Origin: Verrucomicrobiota bacterium
GTDB lineage: Bacteria > Verrucomicrobiota > Verrucomicrobiia > Limisphaerales > Palsa-1400
Length of the DNA stretch: 64,000 nucleotides
Reading direction: 5' to 3'
Assembly: GCA_049510745.1 (NCBI GenBank)
Contig: JBEKYR010000012.1
Span: forward strand, 32,001-96,000
Shown: in pieces, positions 45,204-58,860 of the stretch
Numbering within the stretch: position 1 is the first letter of the stretch
Layout: each line of letters opens with the position of its first letter
Notes under the pieces: generated by a model
The model's database searches: none
Told to the model about the DNA's origin: nothing
The model's input: only the letters and a program-made list of their open reading frames with translations
Position numbers and translations under genes: made by a program

Positions 45204-45384
45204 ACGGTGAATCTCGCTGCGGGACGAATTCCGCCGGCGGTGGAGAGGTCAGTGGACGCGGGGCACCGTCCCCGAATTAGGGGTTCCGTCGGCGAGATGA
45301 GGGCGGGTGTGCCTCCGGCGCCATTTGTGTCTGGCGCCATTTGTGGCTTTCCGTTCCGGGGGGAATTCGCCAGACTGGGCGGCG

Positions 45385-48300
45385 ATGAAACGCCTGTATC
45401 TGTTTTTCGGTGTCTGGTTCCTGCTCGTAGTGTTCAGGGCCGGCGCCGTGACGCCCACCATCCTCTCCCCACCGGAAAGCGTCACCGTCAACAACGCTTC
45501 GGCCGCCGCCTTCACGGTCGTGGCGACCAACGCGGCCAGCTACCAGTGGCAGTTTCCGGGCACCAACAATCTGCCCGCAGCCACCAACGCCACGCTGAGC
45601 CTGGATAATGTGACCAGCAACCAGGCGGGGAGCTACACTGTGGTCGTGACCTCGTCGGACAGCAATTCCATCAGCGCGACAGCGGTGTTGACGATTGTGC
45701 CCGGAACGATCGTCCAGTTGACCATCTCGACTTACCCGGACGGGAGCAGCAACAGTTTTTTGGTGCAGTTGTTTGACCATGACAAGCCGGCCACGGTGGA
45801 GAACTTCATTCATTACATCAGTTCCGGGGCTTATTCGAATATGTTCTTTGACCGGGACGTGACGAATTTTGTTCTGCAAGGGGGCGATTATGTCACCACC
45901 GATCGAACGAGCAATTATCTGTACGGCGGGCCAGTTTCGGCGGGGGAACCCAGTTTTCCATCGCAAGTGGATAGCGAATTGAACGTGGGGCCGCTGATTC
46001 ACAACACATTTGGCACGTTGGCCATGGCCTTGGCTACGGGAAAACCGGACTCGGCCAGCAGCGCGTTCTTCATCAGTTTGACGAACAATTCCCCGTACCT
46101 GGACACGAACAACGGCGGTTTCACCGTCTTCGGGCGGGTCATATCCAATGCCAATGTCCTGCAGTATTTCAACACCTTGAGCGCGCCGAGCAACGGGATT
46201 TTGGATTACAGTTCGAGTATTCCGACGCTGCCGGTCAATTACGACGGGACCAATACTCCGAATAACGCCAATTTATTCTACTGCGATTTTGCGTTCCAAA
46301 CCACGCCGCCGGTGGATACGAACCCGCCGACGGTTTCGATTGCCTTTCCAGCGCCGAACGCGGCCTTCACCAACGGCAGCCCGTTGACAGTGCAAGGGAC
46401 AGCGCAGGATAATGTCGGATTGGCCGAGGTGTTTTGTGTTTTGACCTCGAGCACGGGCGCCTATGGCGGCAAGAGCCAGACCAATGCCGCGCTGGGCACA
46501 ACCAATTGGTCGCTGGATCTGGTCAGTCAACTCGGAACGATTGAGCCGGGGGTTTACCAGTTGACGGCCTACGCCCAGGACGGGGCGGGCAACCTGAGCG
46601 CGCCGGCAACGGAGTATTTCACCAATCTGGCGCAATTGACCATCATCACCAACGTGGAGGGGAACCTGACAACCAACGCGCCGCAGTACCTGGTGCCGGG
46701 ACAGCAGTACTCGGTGGCGGCGGCGCCGGGACCCGGACAACAGTTTGACACTTGGCAATATCAAGGGGTGGTGTCGATTAACCCGGTGCAAACGTTGACG
46801 GTGGAATCCAACCTGACGTTGACGGTGACGTATCTATCCAACACCCTGCCCGCCGGCCTGGCCATAACTAATCCTGCCGCCGGTTCCCAGGTGCCAAGGA
46901 CCAACACCGGCCTGACCGTTAGTGGAACTCTTCCGCCGTCGGATATAGTAACGCAATTGACCTGCCAGCTTTTTTCCCAATCCAACGCCGTGACCGCCGC
47001 GAAATCCCCAAAGCTCAACGGCACCAACTGGACGCTGGCCGTAAGCAACCTTGTGGGCGGGCCTTACACGATAGTGGTTGTGGCGGAGGATTCGTCGGGC
47101 CGATTCGGATTGGTTTCGGAAAATTTCACGCTCCTCGCGCCGCCTATCATCATCTCGCAACCCTCCAGCCCGACCGTCAATAACGGTTCCGCGGCGGACT
47201 TCACCGTCGTGGCGACCAACGCGGTCGCCTACCAATGGCAGTTTGCGGGCACCAATAATCTGCCCGGAGCCACCAACGCCACCCTGGCCCTCGACGACGT
47301 GAGCACCAACCAGGAGGGTTCTTACACGGTCGTCATCACCGCCCCGGATGGCGAGACGTTGAGCAGCCAGCCGGCGGTCCTGACCGTGGTGCAAGGGACG
47401 ATTGTGCAATTGACAATCTCGACTTACCCGGATGGGAGCAGCAACAGTTTTTTGGTGGAGTTGTTTGACCATGACAAGCCGGCCACGGTGGAAAACTTCG
47501 TCCATTACATCAACTCCGGGGCGTACTCGAATATGTTCTTTGACCGGGACGTGACAAATTTTGTTTTGCAAGGGGGCGATTATGTCACCACTGATCGAAC
47601 GAACAATCATCTGTCCGGCGGGCCGGTTTCGGCGGGGGAACCCAATTTTCCGTCGCAAGTGGATAGCGAATTGAACGTGGGGCCGCTGATTCACAATACA
47701 TTTGGCACGTTGGCCATGGCCCTGGTTTCGGGAAAACCGGACTCGGCCAGCAGCGCGTTCTTCATCAGTTTGACGAACAATTCCCCGTACCTGGACACGA
47801 ACAACGGCGGTTTCACCGTTTTCGGGCGGGTCATATCCAATGCCAACGCCCTGCAGTACTTCAACACCTTGAGCGCGCCGAGCAACGGCATTTTCAATTA
47901 CAGTTCGGGTATTCCGACGCTGCCGGTTAATTACGACGGGACCGGCTTGCCCGCCAACAGTAATGTGTTCTACTGCGATTTTGTGTTCCAAACCACGCCG
48001 GTAGTCGATACGAACCCGCCGACGGTCGTGATGACCTATCCGGCGCCAAACGCGGTTTTCAGCAACGGCAGCCCGTTGACAGTGCAAGGGACAGCGCAGG
48101 ATAACATCGGATTGGCCGAGGTGTTTTGTATTTTGACCTCGAGCACGGGCGCCTATAACAACAAGAGCCAGACCAATGCCGCGCTGGGCACAACCAATTG
48201 GTCACTGAATCTGGTCAGCAAACTGGGAACCATTCAGCCGGGGGTTTACCAGTTGACAGCCTACGCCCAGGACGGGGCGGGCAACCTGAGCACGCCGGCA

Positions 48301-51300
48301 ACGGAGTATTTCACCAATCTGACGCGACTGACGATCATCACGAACGTGGAAGGGAACCGGACAACCAACGCGCCGCAGTACCTGGTGCCGGGACAACAGT
48401 ATTCCGTGACGGCGGCGCCGGGACCCGGACAAGAGTTTGACACTTGGACCTCCAACGGTGTGGCGTCGCTTAACCCGGAGCAAACGTTCACGGCGAACGG
48501 CAACCTCACTCTGATGGTGACGTATCTTTCCAACACGCTGCCCGCCGGCCTGGCCATTAGCAGTCCTGCCGCCGGTTCCCAGGTGCCACGGACCAACACC
48601 GGCCTGACCATTAGTGGAACTCTCCCGTCATCGACCACAGTGACGCAACTGACCTGCCAGCTTTTTTCCCAATCCAACGCCGTGACCGCCGCGCAATCGG
48701 CGAGCCTCAGTGGCGCCACCAACTGGTCGCTGGCCGTGAGCAATCTCGTGGGCGGCCCTTACACGATAGTGGTTGTGGCGGAGGATTCGTCGGGCCGTTT
48801 TGGATTGGTTTCGGAAGATTTCACGCTCCTCGCGCCGCCTGTCATCATCTCGCAACCCGCCAGCCTGACCGCCAATAGCGGTTCGGGGGCGGCTTTCACC
48901 GTCGTGGCGACCAACGCGGTCGCCTACCAGTGGCAGTTTCCGGGCACAAACAATCTGCCCGGCGCCACCAACGCCACCTTGACCCTTGACGACGTGAGCA
49001 CCAACCAGGCGGGTTCTTACGTGGTCGTCATCACTGCCCCGGATGGCGAGACGTTGAGCAGCCAGCCGGCGGTCCTGACCGTAGTGCAAGGGACGATTGT
49101 GCAATTGACCATCTCGACTTACCCGGACGGGAGCAGCAGCAATTTGGTGGTGGAGTTGTTTGACAATGACAAGCCGGCCACGGTGGAGAACTTCATCCAT
49201 TGCATTAAGTACGGGGCGTACTCGAATATGTTCTTCGACCTGGATAAGGCCGGGTTTATTCTGCAAGGAGGGACTGACGGCGCCGTGGACCGCACGAATT
49301 CCACTCCCGGTCTGACCGGGTGGGGCATCTATAGTCAGTACATCGCGGGAAACACTAATTTTCCGTCGCAAGTCGATAGCGAATTCAAGGTGGGGCCGTT
49401 GCTGCACAATACATTTGGCACGCTGGCCATGAGCTTGACTACCGGAAAGCCGGACTCGGCCTCAAGCTCGTTCCTCATTAATTTGGCGGACAATTCGGCG
49501 AACCTCGATTATCAAAACGGCGGCTTCACCGTTTTCGGGCGGGTCATATCCAACGCCAACGTCCTGCAGTATTTCAACACCTTGAGCGCGCCGAGCAATG
49601 GCATTTCCAGCAATGTCATCACAGGTTTTGCGGCGCTGCCCGTCAATTACGACGGGACCAACGAACCCGCCAACAGCAACCTGTTCTTCTGCGATTTCAA
49701 GTTCCTGACACCGCCGCCGGTGGATACAAGCCCGCCGACGGTCGCGATTGCTTTTCCGGCGCCGAACGCGGTTTTCACCAACGGCAGTCCGTTGACCGTG
49801 CAAGGGACGGCGCACGACGATGTCGGATTGGCCGAGGTGTTCTGTGTTTTGACCTCGAGCACGGGCGCTTATGGTAACAAGAGCCTGACCAATGCCGCGC
49901 TGGGCACAACCAACTGGTCGCTGAATCCGGCCAGTCAACTCGGAACCATCGAGCCGGGGGTTTACCAGTTGACGGCCTACGCCCAGGACGGGGCGGGAAA
50001 TCTGAGCGCGCCGGCGGCGATTCAGTTCTTCACCAATCTGACGCGACTGACGATCATAACGAACGTTGCCGGCCACCTGACAACCAATGCGCCGCAGTAC
50101 CTGGTGCCGGGACAGCAGTATTCCGTGACGGCGGCGCCCGGAGCGGGACAACAGTTTTACAGTTGGACCTCCAACGGGGTGACGTCGATCAACCCGGAGC
50201 AAACGTTCACGGCGAACGGCAACCTCACGCTGACGGTGACATATCTCTCGAACAATCTTGCGGCAGGCGTGACCATTACAAACCCCGTGACCGGCACGCA
50301 GGCTTTCGCCATCCAGTCGCTGCTGACGGTGAGCGGCACCCTATTTTCTTCGAGCACGGTCACGCAACTGACCTGCCAGTTTTTTGTCAACTCCAATTCC
50401 ATCTCGACCGCGCAGCCCGTCAACCTCGCCGGCACAAACTGGTCGCTGGCCGTGACCAATTTGGGCAACGGCGCCTACACGGTGGTGGCTGTGGCGAGCG
50501 ACACGGCGGGCGACACGTTTTTCGCCGCGGCCAACTTCACGCTGCTGAACGTGGAGCAATTGACACTCAACGTCGTCGGAGGGGGAACCATCGCCAGCAA
50601 TCCGGGACCCTACGTTGTGCCCGGCACCTACACAGTCAAGGCGGTGCCCAACGCCGGGCAGGTCTTTTACAGTTGGAGCGACGGAGTCACCACCACGCTG
50701 AACCCTTCCAAGAAGTTTACGGTCGTGTCGAACCTGACGCTGACGGCGACGTTCGCCGGCGAGGACAAGTCGTTGAAGGGCATCGCGTTCACCTATCCAT
50801 CGGCGAACGCCAACGTGCCCAGTAATACATTCAACCGGGTGGAGGTAAAAGCTCCGGCATCGCTGAGTGTCACGCAGATGACGTGCCAGTTTTTTTTGCA
50901 ATCCAACGGCGTCACGGCATCGCCTCAATTCCTGAACTTCGATGCCGCCACCAAAAAATGGACGTTGCCCGTGACCAATTTCACGCCGGGGCCTTATGTG
51001 GTCATGGCAGTGGCGTATGACAAGGAGGGCAAGAGCAGGCTGGTGTCGGAGAAGTTTAATCTGCTGGCGAAGCTGGCGGTCGGCGTCCAGGGCAAAGGGA
51101 CCGTGACCGCCGGCTTGAACGGGAAGTACCTGCAGGTCGGCAAGAGCTACCGTATTTCCGCCACGCCGACCGCGGGGGAGGTGTTTGCGTTCTGGACCGG
51201 CGCGGTGGCAAACTCAAACAGCCCGGCGACCACGTTTGTCATGTCAAGCAATACGGTGTTGACGGCGACTTTTACAAACAACCCGTTTCCGTCGGTGGCA

Positions 51301-52278
51301 GGCACTTACAACGGGCTGTTCTTCAATGCGACCAATCCGTCGCCGACCAGCTCCGGGTTTGTCACCTTGACCGTGGCCCGTTCCGGCGTGTTCAGCGGAA
51401 AACTGGTGATGCCCACGCTGACGCTGCCCATTTATCCAAGCAAGTTCCCTTACGCCGGCTCCGTCGAGTTTCGAGCGACGAAGGCATCGGATGACTTGGA
51501 CCTCATCTTCGAGATCGATCTGACGGGCGGCACGGACCAACTGATCGGGGAGGTGAGTCATCGGGGCGCCTGGACAAACCTGCTGATTGCCTATCGCGCC
51601 GCCACCAATCTTTCCAGTTCCAACATGCCCGCACCCGGAAAATACGTGCTGACTCTGCAACCAACCAACGGAAGCGCCGGCAGCCCGACCTCCCCCGGTT
51701 ACGCCGCCGTCACGGTGGAAAAGAGCGGGACGGTGGTTTTGGGCGGGGTGTTGCCGGACAATACCGGCATTTCCAAATCCGTCGGAATGTCAAAGGAGGG
51801 CCTATGGCCGCTCTTCATAGCGCCGGCCGGCTACAAGGGCCGCGGGCTGATCATCGGCTGGCAAACCAACCTGTCGTCGCTTGGCCAACTGGCGTGGATC
51901 AAACCGGCGGCCGGCGGGACCTATTATCCCCGCGGCTTTACGACGAGACTGGATGTCACCGGCGCCGGCCACGTCCCGCCCGAGGCCGGCACAAACTACG
52001 AAATCGTTTTCGGCGGGGGCAGCCTGGGGACCAACGCCGCCGTGACCGACCTTCTGACTGTCAACAATTCCAAACAGTTCGTCCCGGAAGGCGCCACGAA
52101 CAAACTGGAGATTTCGCTCCTGCCCGGCGGCGCGCTGACGGGGCATTTTCTCAATGAGGTCGATGGCAGGACGCTGTCGTTCAAGGGCGCTTTCACCAGC
52201 CCGTCGCAAGGAGGTTCGGGTTTCACGCTGGATACCAACGGCGAGAGCGGCTATTTCAACCTGAGCTTGAAGCCGTGA
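45385..52278 (+). CDS. Giant secreted protein with three tandem [Ig - cyclophilin-like - Ig/B-repeat] modules
   Basis: Signal peptide; three copies of LFD.DKPATVENF..Y...GAY.NMFF....F.LQGG, GTLAM and FTVFGRV; periods 1692 and 1695 bp. Confidence 0.88.
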   Translation: MKRLYLFFGVWFLLVVFRAGAVTPTILSPPESVTVNNASAAAFTVVATNAASYQWQFPGTNNLPAATNATLSLDNVTSNQAGSYTVVVTSSDSNSISATAVLTIVPGTIVQLTISTYPDGSSNSFLVQLFDHDKPATVENFIHYISSGAYSNMFFDRDVTNFVLQGGDYVTTDRTSNYLYGGPVSAGEPSFPSQVDSELNVGPLIHNTFGTLAMALATGKPDSASSAFFISLTNNSPYLDTNNGGFTVFGRVISNANVLQYFNTLSAPSNGILDYSSSIPTLPVNYDGTNTPNNANLFYCDFAFQTTPPVDTNPPTVSIAFPAPNAAFTNGSPLTVQGTAQDNVGLAEVFCVLTSSTGAYGGKSQTNAALGTTNWSLDLVSQLGTIEPGVYQLTAYAQDGAGNLSAPATEYFTNLAQLTIITNVEGNLTTNAPQYLVPGQQYSVAAAPGPGQQFDTWQYQGVVSINPVQTLTVESNLTLTVTYLSNTLPAGLAITNPAAGSQVPRTNTGLTVSGTLPPSDIVTQLTCQLFSQSNAVTAAKSPKLNGTNWTLAVSNLVGGPYTIVVVAEDSSGRFGLVSENFTLLAPPIIISQPSSPTVNNGSAADFTVVATNAVAYQWQFAGTNNLPGATNATLALDDVSTNQEGSYTVVITAPDGETLSSQPAVLTVVQGTIVQLTISTYPDGSSNSFLVELFDHDKPATVENFVHYINSGAYSNMFFDRDVTNFVLQGGDYVTTDRTNNHLSGGPVSAGEPNFPSQVDSELNVGPLIHNTFGTLAMALVSGKPDSASSAFFISLTNNSPYLDTNNGGFTVFGRVISNANALQYFNTLSAPSNGIFNYSSGIPTLPVNYDGTGLPANSNVFYCDFVFQTTPVVDTNPPTVVMTYPAPNAVFSNGSPLTVQGTAQDNIGLAEVFCILTSSTGAYNNKSQTNAALGTTNWSLNLVSKLGTIQPGVYQLTAYAQDGAGNLSTPATEYFTNLTRLTIITNVEGNRTTNAPQYLVPGQQYSVTAAPGPGQEFDTWTSNGVASLNPEQTFTANGNLTLMVTYLSNTLPAGLAISSPAAGSQVPRTNTGLTISGTLPSSTTVTQLTCQLFSQSNAVTAAQSASLSGATNWSLAVSNLVGGPYTIVVVAEDSSGRFGLVSEDFTLLAPPVIISQPASLTANSGSGAAFTVVATNAVAYQWQFPGTNNLPGATNATLTLDDVSTNQAGSYVVVITAPDGETLSSQPAVLTVVQGTIVQLTISTYPDGSSSNLVVELFDNDKPATVENFIHCIKYGAYSNMFFDLDKAGFILQGGTDGAVDRTNSTPGLTGWGIYSQYIAGNTNFPSQVDSEFKVGPLLHNTFGTLAMSLTTGKPDSASSSFLINLADNSANLDYQNGGFTVFGRVISNANVLQYFNTLSAPSNGISSNVITGFAALPVNYDGTNEPANSNLFFCDFKFLTPPPVDTSPPTVAIAFPAPNAVFTNGSPLTVQGTAHDDVGLAEVFCVLTSSTGAYGNKSLTNAALGTTNWSLNPASQLGTIEPGVYQLTAYAQDGAGNLSAPAAIQFFTNLTRLTIITNVAGHLTTNAPQYLVPGQQYSVTAAPGAGQQFYSWTSNGVTSINPEQTFTANGNLTLTVTYLSNNLAAGVTITNPVTGTQAFAIQSLLTVSGTLFSSSTVTQLTCQFFVNSNSISTAQPVNLAGTNWSLAVTNLGNGAYTVVAVASDTAGDTFFAAANFTLLNVEQLTLNVVGGGTIASNPGPYVVPGTYTVKAVPNAGQVFYSWSDGVTTTLNPSKKFTVVSNLTLTATFAGEDKSLKGIAFTYPSANANVPSNTFNRVEVKAPASLSVTQMTCQFFLQSNGVTASPQFLNFDAATKKWTLPVTNFTPGPYVVMAVAYDKEGKSRLVSEKFNLLAKLAVGVQGKGTVTAGLNGKYLQVGKSYRISATPTAGEVFAFWTGAVANSNSPATTFVMSSNTVLTATFTNNPFPSVAGTYNGLFFNATNPSPTSSGFVTLTVARSGVFSGKLVMPTLTLPIYPSKFPYAGSVEFRATKASDDLDLIFEIDLTGGTDQLIGEVSHRGAWTNLLIAYRAATNLSSSNMPAPGKYVLTLQPTNGSAGSPTSPGYAAVTVEKSGTVVLGGVLPDNTGISKSVGMSKEGLWPLFIAPAGYKGRGLIIGWQTNLSSLGQLAWIKPAAGGTYYPRGFTTRLDVTGAGHVPPEAGTNYEIVFGGGSLGTNAAVTDLLTVNNSKQFVPEGATNKLEISLLPGGALTGHFLNEVDGRTLSFKGAFTSPSQGGSGFTLDTNGESGYFNLSLKP

Positions 52279-54877: not shown

Positions 54878-56011
54878 TTAGACGAGCTTCTTGTACTGCC
54901 TGGTTTCCGCCAGCTTTTTGACCAGTTCCTTGACTTTCTGCGCCTGGCTCTTGTGGGCCAGCAAGACGGCGTCGTCGGTCTGCACCAGGATGGCGTCCCG
55001 CAGCCCGACGACCGCGATGGGGGTGCGGTGGCGGGTCCTGGCGTCAAAAATAATGTTTCGCGCGCCATCGATATGGATGAAGTCTCCGACCGCGCAGTTG
55101 CCTTCGGGGTCGGCTTTGAGGTGGCGGGCCAGGGCGGTCCAGGAACCCACATCGTCCCAGGCAAAGGCGCCGTCGGCCACGACGACGTTGTGAGCGCGCT
55201 CCATCAGGGCGTAGTCGATGGAGATTTTTTTGGTTTCGGGGTATTCCCTGGCCAGGACTTTGGCGAGCCTGGGGGTGCCGGCGGCCTGGAACCAGCGCCG
55301 GCAGGCGGCGGCCAGCTCCGGTTGGTGCATTTCCAACCCCTGCGTGATGGTGACGAAGGACCAGATGAACATCCCGGCGTTCCACCGGTATTGGCCGCTG
55401 TTGACGTATTCGAGCGCCTTATCAAAGAGCGGTTTTTCCACAAATTGTTCCGCCTTGAAGAACGCTGTTTTGTAAGGCTTGACCCCTTGCGGCGGGGGCA
55501 GGAGGTTGCCGACGCGAATGTAACCGTAGCCCGTGGCCGGCTCGGTGGGTTTGATGCCGATGGTCACAATAACCTGGCCGCGCGCGGCCAGATCAAACGA
55601 ATCAGCAAGCACCTGCTGGAATTTTTTCTCCTCCGGAATGACCTGGTCGGCGGGCAGGACGGCCATGACGGCGCTGGTCGAGCGCTGCCCGACAATGGCC
55701 GCGCCCAGGGTGACGGCGGCGCAGGTGTCGCGCCCGATTGGCTCGGCCACGACGTTTTCCCTGGGCAGCCTGGGCAACTGACGACGGACTTCGGGGGCCT
55801 GGACGGCGTTGGTGATGACGAGGATGTTTTTGAGCGGGACCAGCGGCAGGACGCGCTCGACGGCCTGTTGCAAAAAGGAGCGGCCGCCCAGCAGGCTGAC
55901 CAGTTGTTTGGGCGTCTTCTCGCGGCTGACGGGCCAGAACCGTTCGCCGCGCCCGCCCGCCATGATGATGACAAAACGGTTGTTGCCGGTTGACTTTGAT
56001 TGTATTCTCAT
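54878..56011 (-). CDS. manC: Mannose-1-phosphate guanylyltransferase
   Basis: IMAGGRGERFWPVSR..PKQ, EPIGRDT, TGYGYI, FVEKP, WNAGMF, ISIDYALME, WDDVGSW; start could be 56035. Confidence 0.93.
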   Translation of the reverse strand: MRIQSKSTGNNRFVIIMAGGRGERFWPVSREKTPKQLVSLLGGRSFLQQAVERVLPLVPLKNILVITNAVQAPEVRRQLPRLPRENVVAEPIGRDTCAAVTLGAAIVGQRSTSAVMAVLPADQVIPEEKKFQQVLADSFDLAARGQVIVTIGIKPTEPATGYGYIRVGNLLPPPQGVKPYKTAFFKAEQFVEKPLFDKALEYVNSGQYRWNAGMFIWSFVTITQGLEMHQPELAAACRRWFQAAGTPRLAKVLAREYPETKKISIDYALMERAHNVVVADGAFAWDDVGSWTALARHLKADPEGNCAVGDFIHIDGARNIIFDARTRHRTPIAVVGLRDAILVQTDDAVLLAHKSQAQKVKELVKKLAETRQYKKLV

Positions 56012-56098
56012 ATTGATGAATTCACCATAGTGCATTCAATTTGGCGGTCAAAGCGAAAGAGGCAGCGGTAGTTCTAATTCGGGGAATTATATACATCG

Positions 56099-56509
56099 TT
56101 ACCCTAAGCCTTGATTTTTTGCGCGTGTCTCGGCGGCTTTTAAGCCAGCGAGCCGCCACTTGCGGCGGAAAGAAGTTTGCCGTTTTTTGCGACTCAAGGC
56201 CGCCTTTATACCGGCATCCTTCATGCGTTTTGACCACTTGACCACTTTTGGGCGATCGCGCATTTCGATGATTGTAGCTGTTGAGATCAAGTCGAGATCA
56301 TGCATCTTGTGGCAATTAGGGCAGAGGATGACTAGGTTTGATGCTGCGCTATTGGCTCGATTTCCGTCAATGTGGGCCACTTCCAGAACGTCTTTAATTC
56401 CGAATCCGCAATGAGCGCACAAGGCGGGATAGGTTGCGAAGGCCAACTTGCGGTAATTGACGCGCTTGGCACTCACGTTACTTGGAGAATTTGTATATTC
56501 ATAAGTCAT
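56099..56509 (-). CDS. HNH endonuclease
   Basis: CAHC...EVAHID.NR.N....NLVILCPNCHKMHD; basic C-terminal tail; stop codon lies inside the left TIR. Confidence 0.9.
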   Translation of the reverse strand: MTYEYTNSPSNVSAKRVNYRKLAFATYPALCAHCGFGIKDVLEVAHIDGNRANSAASNLVILCPNCHKMHDLDLISTATIIEMRDRPKVVKWSKRMKDAGIKAALSRKKRQTSFRRKWRLAGLKAAETRAKNQGLG

Positions 56510-57360
56510 TGACTAGTATTATGTTGTGAACGTTTATCCTCTTGCTCTCTGAGTTTACTGCAATCTTCTTCCCATTGTTTCTCGGCTTGCCGCGACTTTT
56601 CGAACGCTTCGTCTATTTCTTTGTAAATATCGGCGATAACTCTCTCGTATGCTTGCGTTCTAGCCACTCCAAGTTGATTGTTTTCGGCGTTAAGTTTTTT
56701 GCAAATTCGTTCCGTGAAGTGATTCGGGAATGGCATGGTGCGTTTTCGACCACGCTCTACAACCGCAACGCTGACAGGGCCACCGCAAAAAGCGTCAATG
56801 CCCTTGACGTGCTCAATTGTATCTATCGCCAAAGTCAGCCCTGTTTGCCATGTCATGCGGCTGGCGTCTATTTGACTGAGAAAGAACTTCGATATTCTAG
56901 AGGCAATTCCAATCGCCGCAAATCGGGAACACGGCTGGGCTTGGGCCGTGATTGAGTCAATGGTATAAAGATAGGCTTTATACCTGTAAAAATGGGCGAT
57001 CATCAATTGAAAAAAATTCTCGTCTCGTTCAAATAAAGCCCGCTGCCGATCTTCTGGCATGTCTGGAAGATTATATAAGCCCAACACATTACGATGGAAA
57101 TTTTTGATTGATTTTTGTGCTAAATTTACCGCTGCCCATTCGCTATCTAGGGATTTGCCATTAGCCTCTCTTTTAATGTCATCAATAACCCGGAAGGCAG
57201 GCGCAATTCCACCACAGAATGCAATCAAAGCCCCATTATCTTCAAAATCAATGCTGTATATTTTCAACGCATCGAGTTCTTTCATGCTGCCAGCGGTCGC
57301 TTGACTCTCTCCCGCCATGACAACCGTATCTTTACAGATGACACCCACAATCTGGCTCAT
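56506..57360 (-). CDS. Proteasome-beta/Ntn-hydrolase-like protein with Ser1 and a coiled-coil tail
   Basis: GGAGG RBS; MSQIVGVICKDTVVMAGESQAT, LKI, IAFCG, YLYTID, FAAIG, D.FCGGPVSVAVV follow the beta-subunit motif order. Confidence 0.7.
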   Translation of the reverse strand: MSQIVGVICKDTVVMAGESQATAGSMKELDALKIYSIDFEDNGALIAFCGGIAPAFRVIDDIKREANGKSLDSEWAAVNLAQKSIKNFHRNVLGLYNLPDMPEDRQRALFERDENFFQLMIAHFYRYKAYLYTIDSITAQAQPCSRFAAIGIASRISKFFLSQIDASRMTWQTGLTLAIDTIEHVKGIDAFCGGPVSVAVVERGRKRTMPFPNHFTERICKKLNAENNQLGVARTQAYERVIADIYKEIDEAFEKSRQAEKQWEEDCSKLREQEDKRSQHNTSQ

Positions 57361-57592
57361 TGGCACCCTCCATTTCTTAAAAAAGGGCGGCGGCTTTGGT
57401 TGCGGAAACCTGTAAGGAGTGAATGGACGTTTTTAACGGAGTCATTCATACCGCCAATGGTAAACGCTGGAATCGCTGCGACAAGACTGAATATCTGATA
57501 GCGGGGCATTATTCATCGCAACACACTAATCCGCAGCGACTTCCGCAGAGGTAACGTTGTATATAATTCCCCTAATTTGAATTGCGGTTAGC

Positions 57593-58048
57593 TCATGCTT
57601 CAGGCTGCCATTCCGTTTCCGCAAATATGGTGTAAAGAAGACTCTGCCCGCTGTCTATTGCCATCCCTTCCAGCCGGGAGGAGATAACCACATTGAGAAA
57701 CCTGCTCAGAGCGAAAGGGGTGTGTCGCTCATCGACGGAGATGATTTGCGCCAACTTGTTCGCAGAAAGGCAAGCCAGAATGCGGTAATACTCCTCTAAT
57801 GCAGGCGCATCCGCGAGCGCCTGTGGATGGGCGAACACTTCGCTGGGTACGAAGTCAAGGAGTTGCGCGGTCTGGCGAGCCAGATTGGAAATGCAAAGTT
57901 CATCCCAATCCCAAACAAGGTTTCTCCACATTGCGCGCTGGGCTATCTCTCGCAGTTGCTCAAACCGGGATGCTTGGATGCAGTGCCAGAAACTGCGAGA
58001 CCGCGCCAGGAATTGCTCCTGGAGCGCAGAGGTAATGTCTTGAGTCAT
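57593..58048 (-). pseudogene. Hypothetical protein, possibly the N-terminal part of an XcyI-like restriction endonuclease
   Basis: ATGA overlap with trpA; AT-richer; WD..ELCIS, VFAHP..L, YYRILACLS; family assignment is from memory only. Confidence 0.4.
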
Positions 58049-58860
58049 ATCTCTTCTGCTGGAATGCCTTTCACCGCTCTGGCCAGCCCAGCGGCGAAGC
58101 CGCTGACGCGGGCGGGCAGATCGGTGTCGCGGCCATGCAGGGCGATTTGGTTGACGATGGCGCTGCCCACGACCACTGCGTCGGCGTTTTCCGCCACCTG
58201 GCGCGCTTGTTCGGGGGTGGAAATGCCAAAGCCGACGGCCACGGGCAAGCTGGTGTGGGCGCGGATTTTGGCGGTCATCTCGCCGATGGTTTCGGAAACT
58301 TTCTTTTGCATCCCGGTGACGCCCTCGCGGGAGACGTAGTAGATAAAGCCGGCGCCGCGCCGGACGATGAGTTCGATGCGGGAGTCGGGCGTGGTGGGCG
58401 CGACCAGGTAGATGGCGCAAAGGCCCGCCCTGGTCATGAGCGCCTCGTAATTCTCCGATTCCTCCGGCGGCAAATCGAGCACCAGCAGGCCGTCCACGCC
58501 GGCGGCGGCGGCGGCGGCCACGAATTTCTCCAAGCCGTGGCGGTGGATGAGGTTGAAATAGATGTAGAGAACGATGGGGATTTGGGAATCGCGGCGGATG
58601 GCGGCGACGGTTTGCAGGACTTTGACGGGCGTAGTGCCCGACTCCAGCCCGCGTTGGGCCGCCAACTGGTTGACCAGGCCGTCGGCGAGGGGATCGCTGA
58701 AGGGCACGCCCAGTTCGAGAACATCGACGCCGGCTTGATCGAGGGCCAGGGCCAGGCGGCGGGTCATTTCGAGGTTGGGATCGCCCGCGCCGATATAGAC
58801 AATGAACCCTTTTTGTCCGTCTCTCTTCAGCCGCGCAAATCGTTCTGCGATGCGGTTCAT
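58045..58860 (-). CDS. trpA: Tryptophan synthase alpha subunit
   Basis: AGDP, LELGVPFSDPLADG, DLPPEE, YYVSREGVTG, VGFGIS, VVGSA. Confidence 0.97.
   Translation of the reverse strand: MNRIAERFARLKRDGQKGFIVYIGAGDPNLEMTRRLALALDQAGVDVLELGVPFSDPLADGLVNQLAAQRGLESGTTPVKVLQTVAAIRRDSQIPIVLYIYFNLIHRHGLEKFVAAAAAAGVDGLLVLDLPPEESENYEALMTRAGLCAIYLVAPTTPDSRIELIVRRGAGFIYYVSREGVTGMQKKVSETIGEMTAKIRAHTSLPVAVGFGISTPEQARQVAENADAVVVGSAIVNQIALHGRDTDLPARVSGFAAGLARAVKGIPAEEI

Follow-up and report, generated by a model that had tools for sequence, protein, structure and literature searches.

At positions 56082-57571 of the window (the whole 64,000-nucleotide stretch of DNA that was analysed) lies a 1,490-bp unit whose gene content consists of two minus-strand genes, encoding a proteasome-like protease and a small HNH nuclease, which overlap at an ATGA (Table 1). 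The unit is bounded by 22-bp inverted ends identical at 21 of 22 positions, the identity ceasing beyond these, and is flanked by the 8-mers CTAATTCG and CTAATTTG, which agree at 7 of 8 positions. The GC content of its interior was 46.5%, relative to 60.3% for the whole genome. These features had all been listed in the original prediction and were confirmed, as was the lack of a transposase, no trace of which was detected in the unit by tblastn with five IS1595 transposases of related elements (best E 0.18). The proposed coupling of the two genes through the ATGA held for the overlap itself and not for the conserved HNH start: the start common to relatives is a GTG at 56476, 33 bases past the overlap, the overlapping ATG lengthens the HNH frame by 11 codons, and it is only from around the GTG onward that the DNA resembles other HNH loci. 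The HNH stop codon falls within the left inverted repeat of the unit, as it does in several relatives. A search of the leader for a sigma-70 promoter gave no match above chance, and the terminator scan likewise stayed at chance level. A single contig of a public run (possibly the genome's own source) covers 55943-58483 with 0 differences, which rules out a chimera produced in this assembly, and identical pieces of its interior were present in three further public runs. The runs containing the unit's DNA are peat and wetland metagenomes, and no RNA runs were among those listed.

Table 1. Features at the locus (window positions) and protease paralogs elsewhere in the same genome
Feature	Position	Strand	Remark
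Target-site duplication, left copy CTAATTCG	56074..56081	.	1 mismatch to right copy
Terminal inverted repeat, HNH end (right end in gene sense)	56082..56103	+	contains HNH stop codon
Small HNH nuclease gene, 136 aa (ATG) / 125 aa (conserved GTG 56476)	56099..56509	-	
Proteasome-beta-like Ntn hydrolase gene, 284 aa	56506..57360	-	without propeptide
Non-coding leader	57361..57549	-	GGAGG ribosome-binding site 57371-57367, 6 bases 5' of ATG
Terminal inverted repeat, protease end	57550..57571	-	
Target-site duplication, right copy CTAATTTG	57572..57579	.	
N-terminal remnant, XcyI-family restriction endonuclease, 151 aa	57593..58048	-	outside element
Protease paralog in autonomous IS1595, 8/8 duplication	G000:C24:31734-33984		
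Protease paralog in 3.3-kb transposase-less unit, GGTTTGACCC ends, with repeat-rich 686-aa gene	G000:C1:188119-191393		
Protease paralog near integrase-like and replication-like genes	G000:C5:111749-112594		

Elsewhere, ends of the same type enclose complete IS1595 elements flanked by 8/8 duplications, which argues that those of the unit are not a chance resemblance. An end-motif scan of one genome per species gave 28 loci, to which three from relatives were added, and these contained 12 distinct paired elements, nine with an IS1595 transposase or a fragment of one and three without; the latter carried a methylase only, TnpB only, and PemK with a small gene, respectively. Same-type ends, 8/8 duplications and an IS1595 transposase were found together in 11 elements (L018, L020, L036, L041, L044, L052, L054, L055, L070, L073 and L079), and the duplication is 8/8 in most paired relatives compared with 7/8 at the unit. 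The ends of L018 and L020, both of which encode IS1595 transposases, differ from those of the unit at 1-3 of 22 bases; L018, whose ends are one base off, has an 8/8 duplication, the passengers beside its transposase being a methylase-Mrr gene and a protease belonging to the family of the unit's own. Units with these ends that contain no transposase or only a fragment include L032 (methylase), L050 (TnpB) and L056 (PemK), as well as L063, L075 and L108, which carry HNH genes. This survey establishes the ends as IS1595 ends between which passengers vary freely and from which transposase-less derivatives commonly arise and, since relatives with near-identical ends encode IS1595 transposases, the unit is a non-autonomous derivative of an IS1595-family transporter IS, in agreement with the origin and non-autonomous state first proposed for it. 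The label ISNwi1 for the ends rests on the end motif and is our assumption. Complete HNH-bearing IS1595 elements have the order passenger - transposase - HNH, with a different passenger each time, and the general build of the lineage is left end, variable passenger, DDE transposase, HNH and right end, the HNH stop often lying within the end repeat. When 27 other passengers were compared with the PADLOC models, only a type IIG restriction-modification protein matched. The end motif was also present at 16 loci on viral contigs. A search for the unit's repeat and a matching transposase had been suggested, and succeeded in relatives and not in the genome itself: the 5.6-Mb assembly (94% complete, 85 contigs) contains no further copy of the 22-mer end at up to 5 mismatches, and its two IS1595 transposases belong to elements with other ends and are 34-39% identical to the matching type, which makes the present mobility of the unit doubtful. 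No direct autonomous parent was found among the elements examined.

The IS1595 lineage with these ends has a strong CWAATTWG target preference. The target CAAATTAG/CTAATTTG is the commonest for this end type, with an exact CAAATTAG or CTAATTTG flank at 12 of 58 distinct ends and a single mismatch at four more, against a background of 6.5e-5 among AT-rich 8-mers of the genome. In a hand-collapsed, chosen subset of 22 insertion events, drawn from HNH-bearing or family-level loci and including kin that are not independent, the same target was used in 11. The 8-mer occurs within terminal repeats of the IS1 family, as seen in the IS1 element G000:C2:212027-214677, and one of the elements (L020) is nested in an IS1-type end next to an IS1 transposase remnant. 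The left flank of the unit resembles, at the sequence level, a worn copy of this IS1-family-end target. Several other targets lie outside any IS1 context, so the preference is for the sequence and does not amount to exclusive IS1 targeting. The preference for this target, which gives rise to nested insertions, was noted at the unit flanks (56067-56081 and 57572-57584), L020, L074, L080 and L019. Three of the runs hold other contigs with the same end and the same target and with different flanks.

The unit lies between trpA and manC. Among 40 relatives, matches to these two genes were less than 250 bases apart in 25, leaving no insert (these relatives being too distant to define an empty site at base level), 0.7-3.6 kb apart in seven and 376 bases apart in one, and were unlinked or gave no match in seven. 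No joint skipping the unit, as expected of an exact empty allele, occurred in four runs. In two relatives (G016 and G014) the gap holds a methylase and a 310-aa endonuclease, assigned to the XcyI family by Pfam in G016, and in a third (G002) an EcoO109I-type restriction system. The product of the 151-aa gene beside the unit aligns with the 310-aa RE_XcyI protein that G016 encodes at this locus (47% identity across 150 aa) and, as judged by this alignment, is the N-terminal half of an XcyI-type endonuclease. It was considered as a possible part of the unit and rejected, as it is a restriction-gene remnant sitting beyond the repeats. Restriction genes were seen in the gap in G016, G014, G002, G008 and G023, either truncated or complete, the complete ones pairing a methylase with an XcyI-type or EcoO109I-type gene, and remnants of XcyI-type genes form frames of 150-230 aa in three genomes. 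The restriction genes and remnants in relatives mark the gap as a site of restriction-modification turnover.

The larger gene product matched the Pfam Proteasome family (PF00227, E 8e-13) and, after removal of Met, has Ser1, Glu17 and Lys32 together with the oxyanion residue Gly49 and a conserved CGG. Across 149 relatives, position 1 was Thr in 130 and Ser in 11, position 17 was Asp in 120 and Glu in 27, the Lys was kept in 147 and the Gly in 144, and a near-invariant Cys was found in 140. A Gly-Ile-Ala stands at the position of the proteasome motif Gly-Ser-Gly, and its Ile is present in 28 of the 149. A dead enzyme, as might be read from Ser1, Glu17 and this motif, was rejected because all three are within family variation. 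The structure model (pLDDT 96.4) has the proteasome-beta fold, with an extra helix after H2 (residues 103-111) and a 69-residue C-terminal helix (213-281), and matched 1j2q_H in Foldseek (E 2e-12) and 20S subunits and Anbu with Z of 22-24, at 9-21% identity to solved proteasome and Anbu chains. NCBIfam equivalog cut-offs were not reached (39 versus 224 bits for TIGR03634, 22 versus 137 bits for HslV). Using HMMER, 405 family representatives were recovered at E <=0.001, the best 39% identical, while a word-based search found the unit's protease alone. Of 15 protease loci in other genomes, eight adjoin an IS1595 transposase, two an IS1 transposase and one an integrase-like gene (taken to be such from its sequence), with nothing recognisable at four; 34 IS1595 matches were present in 31 genomes of the host family, which places the adjacency of protease and IS1595 far above chance. 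Three further paralogs are encoded in the genome, on three kinds of mobile unit (Table 1), and an HNH gene accompanies none of them. In a phylum-wide sample of 400 genomes the family was found in this genome only, viral contigs gave one weak match, and the plasmid collection gave no match to either this family or that of the HNH. The unit's protease belongs to a 13-row SQ/TQ-ESQ subclade (SH-aLRT 100), three members of which could be placed in context, two of them (the unit and L070) sharing an element with an HNH gene. A second, more distant proteasome-like type, a 388-aa frame with E 1e-12 to the family model, is a passenger of an IS1595 with these ends at L020:6191-7357.

The smaller product matched Pfam HNH (PF01844) at E 7e-5, above the cut-off, and has two CxxC pairs, the motif H46-D48...N58...H67/H70 and a long basic C-terminal helix; C31, C34, H46, D48, N58, C63, C66 and H67 were invariant in 58 family sequences. 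Together with the fold models and the conserved catalytic residues, the Pfam matches upheld both identities initially given to the two proteins (a proteasome-like Ntn hydrolase and an HNH). The HNH model (pLDDT 88.5) consists of a confident core and the long basic tail helix, its nearest folds being EcoKMcrA and Cap5 (weak, E 3e-3 to 1e-2); further weak matches were to ZorE and HEase models and PHROG HNH families, and every NCBIfam match was far under the curated cut-off. There were 868 homologs, with 65-84% identity among the 120 listed, the close ones being named Verrucomicrobiae. Relative to six relatives dN was 0.10-0.15 and dS about 2 or saturated, by which measure the gene is under purifying selection. 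Both proteins of the unit look intact from their sequences and models, Ser1/Glu17/Lys32 being set on a proteasome-beta/Anbu fold and the HNH being conserved in this way. The 83 HNH loci examined (the best 80 of 469 metagenome matches, many of them on short contigs, plus one viral and two genome loci) represented 71 distinct ones. Of these, 16 lay at an IS1595 right end, four at an IS1 end and 17 at attC-like sites (by a rough pattern; two adjoin an integron-type integrase), with 34 in other contexts. Lone inserts without recognisable ends were observed in NADH-dehydrogenase (nuo) operons or the lepA/signal peptidase gap (L021/L095, L077, L119 and L116). On the HNH tree (72 rows, duplicates omitted, few columns) four or more changes are required to account for the IS1595-end label, and the unit's HNH groups with two IS1-end HNHs (98/90), apart from that of L070. 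Two HNH loci were found on viral contigs, and a class-wide search found the family in one of 400 genomes.

The original prediction saw in the two genes a dedicated sensor/effector module and proposed co-occurrence as a check. Searched for in the same 400 genomes of the order, the two families were found in 10 (protease) and five (HNH), and together in none (4-10 candidates were scored per genome, and many genomes are incomplete). A protease relative was present at one of the 71 distinct HNH loci (the best 80 of 469 metagenome matches plus three), or one of the 45 with at least 1 kb upstream, and an HNH partner at none of the 15 protease loci, for which 6-11 kb were fetched. The sole other co-occurrence (L070, identical to L071) has the order protease - transposase - HNH, so that the genes are not adjacent, and its protease, of the same subfamily as that of the unit and 33% identical to it, occupies the variable-passenger slot. 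Descent of the unit from L070 by direct deletion was rejected on account of this identity and of the HNHs belonging to different clades. Of 12 IS1595 ends that bear an HNH and have 1 kb or more of upstream sequence, one had the protease beside it, compared with three of the 29 distinct IS1595 elements of the host family (30 loci from 34 matches, with 1.5-kb flanks), most of which carry neither gene; pairing is thus not enriched and stays at background level. Since each gene usually travels without the other, the pair in the unit resemble separate passengers sharing a vehicle more than the parts of a single new defence system. The sensor/effector module is not supported, and the earlier interpretation is, overall, partly supported. 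In a full-text literature search, with most subscription papers outside its scope, no paper on a proteasome-like IS1595 passenger or on this pair was found.

The unit is therefore read, with good though not complete confidence, as a non-autonomous IS1595 transporter-IS derivative carrying two independently acting cargo genes that were joined by transposase loss. An ancestor of the order passenger - transposase - HNH would have lost its transposase, leaving the protease abutting the HNH with the ATGA overlap at or near the seam, and an IS1595 transposase would have placed the unit between trpA and manC at CTAATTTG, a preferred target; renewed movement would require a matching transposase in trans, which the present assembly does not hold. 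The L070 protease being only 33% identical and no transposase remnant being found at the seam, it is also conceivable that the cargo was captured by a unit which was non-autonomous already. The two proteins would act independently of each other, and from sequence both cargo genes probably serve conflict or defence. The spread of the HNH through integron cassettes and the restriction and toxin genes on sister elements make a single-gene defence nuclease its most likely role; that it is a beta-beta-alpha DNase with bound Zn, would grip DNA by its basic tail helix and is retained for single-gene action against phages or plasmids, is given a little short of an even chance. The protease may use Ser1 as nucleophile after Met removal, with Glu17 and Lys32, probably self-associates through its long C-terminal helix, as Anbu does, and probably works without an ATPase to cut a specific protein. 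A conflict or defence protein is our best, tentative guess for the substrate, and a transposition-related one, ranked below it, seems rather unlikely.

Three other explanations were weighed. That the unit is a decaying relic, fixed, silent and losing function, is improbable: the single mismatches in the duplication and in the repeats, the single copy in an assembly without a matching transposase, the truncated restriction gene next door and the lack of a promoter match above chance would suit decay, whereas both frames are intact, the catalytic residues fall within the family range, the ribosome-binding site is good and dN for the HNH is far below dS against relatives, though this reflects long-term history. 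Slightly less credit is due to a dedicated two-gene system, in which the protease would sense infection or process the HNH, freeing the nuclease for abortive defence or addiction. The genes are co-oriented and overlapping, make up the whole cargo and encode proteins that by sequence look catalytically intact, yet the overlap relies on an ATG upstream of the conserved HNH start and no PADLOC model matches the protease. The second, distant element with both families, and the two of three placed subclade members that share an element with an HNH, speak for such a system; the transposase between the genes in L070, the lack of overlap in 400 genomes, the absence of the partner at 70 of 71 HNH and all 15 protease loci and a co-occurrence equal to background speak against it. 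In a more specific and very doubtful form, the SQ/TQ-ESQ subclade would have been recruited as HNH trigger, making a translationally coupled, protease-gated anti-phage DNase with a proteasome-fold sensor; that the two genes would then have come together on two or more occasions within one IS1595 lineage (the unit and L070), with selection removing the transposase, is a similarly long shot. Were it true, a protease-gated DNase would be spread by a transposon preferring one 8-base target found in IS1-family ends.

It is also very unlikely that the passengers serve the transposon, the HNH as a homing-type or retention nuclease and the protease as a regulator of the transposase or a counter to a host factor, both being leftovers here. 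TnpB plays such a homing-type or retention role for IS200/IS605, and TnpB-only units with the same ends exist (L050 and, by resemblance of its gene, L189). In many elements the HNH has a fixed place at the right end and its stop codon falls in the repeat, and an IS transposase is the neighbour at 10 of the 15 protease loci. Such service is at odds with the use of unrelated vehicles by both genes: the HNH is also an integron cassette, a neighbour of IS1 ends or a lone insert in the nuo and lepA operons, and the protease rides IS1595 and IS1 or lies beside an integrase-like gene. Most host-family IS1595 elements have neither gene.

As a derivative carrying independent cargo, the unit is of an element type already known, a transporter IS without its transposase. 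Transporter IS (tIS) of the IS1595 family are defined in TnCentral (10.1101/2021.05.26.445724; PMC9330008), examples being MTnSag1 and tISCpe8 (PMC5704250). The unit has in common with these the inverted ends of about 22-25 bp, the 8-bp duplication and the passengers, its relatives with the same ends encoding PF12762/PF12760 transposases, and differs in lacking a transposase, in carrying a proteasome-like hydrolase and an HNH instead of resistance genes and in the strong CWAATTWG target preference of its lineage. The orphan proteasome homologs PHI and WPH, together with Anbu, were treated by Fuchs, Alva and Lupas in 2021 (PMC8665760), and share with the unit's protease the proteasome-beta fold, Thr/Ser1-Asp/Glu17-Lys33 and the lack of a propeptide, the long C-terminal helix of Anbu, WPH and some PHI and, for PHI, a helix inserted after H2, the likeness to PHI being one to its published description. 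The authors saw no informative genomic context for the orphan homologs, and the text consulted contains no word starting with 'transpos', in contrast to the present family, which rides insertion sequences. The HNH has the Zn-finger beta-beta-alpha core of McrA, Cap5, ZorE effector domains and phage HNH endonucleases; unlike McrA, Cap5 and ZorE it has no reader, SAVED or partner domain, consisting of 125-136 aa with a basic C-terminal helix. Integron cassettes are described as rich in small defence genes, single-gene anti-phage cassettes including HNH-related ones (10.1101/2024.07.02.601686), and the unit's HNH resembles these as a small stand-alone mobile gene whose family forms a cassette beside integron-type integrases; the host group is another and the vehicle an IS derivative, and the likeness is one of context.

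What is new is the HNH as a right-end passenger common to IS1 ends and integrons, the negative outcome for the pair, and the 8-base target preference, which is unusually sharp. A family resembling the orphan proteasome homologs, which the 2021 survey could place in no genomic context, is found to ride insertion sequences. A conserved 125-aa HNH moving alone among IS1595 ends, IS1 ends and integron cassettes has the profile of a single-gene defence nuclease. The unit by itself defines no new two-gene system, and supplies two compact, apparently intact candidates for phage-challenge screening.

Elsewhere in the window, 45307-52278 encodes a predicted secreted protein of 2,323 aa that, as read from its sequence, contains three repeats of a unit combining an Ig-like and a cyclophilin-like part. 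Three further elements were noted. At L050:4646-6022, 1,377 bp with IS1595 ends and an 8/8 duplication contain one long gene, TnpB by Pfam, and at L189:2260-3494, on a viral contig, 1,235 bp with ends of 24/24 identity and a 4/8 duplication contain one 390-aa gene whose sequence resembles TnpB; it would be unusual for TnpB to be mobilised by ends of the IS1595 type. At G000:C35:34882-37801 a long reading frame is interrupted by an IS1595 element of 2.9 kb, which has CGGAA-type ends and an 8/8 duplication and carries several small passengers.
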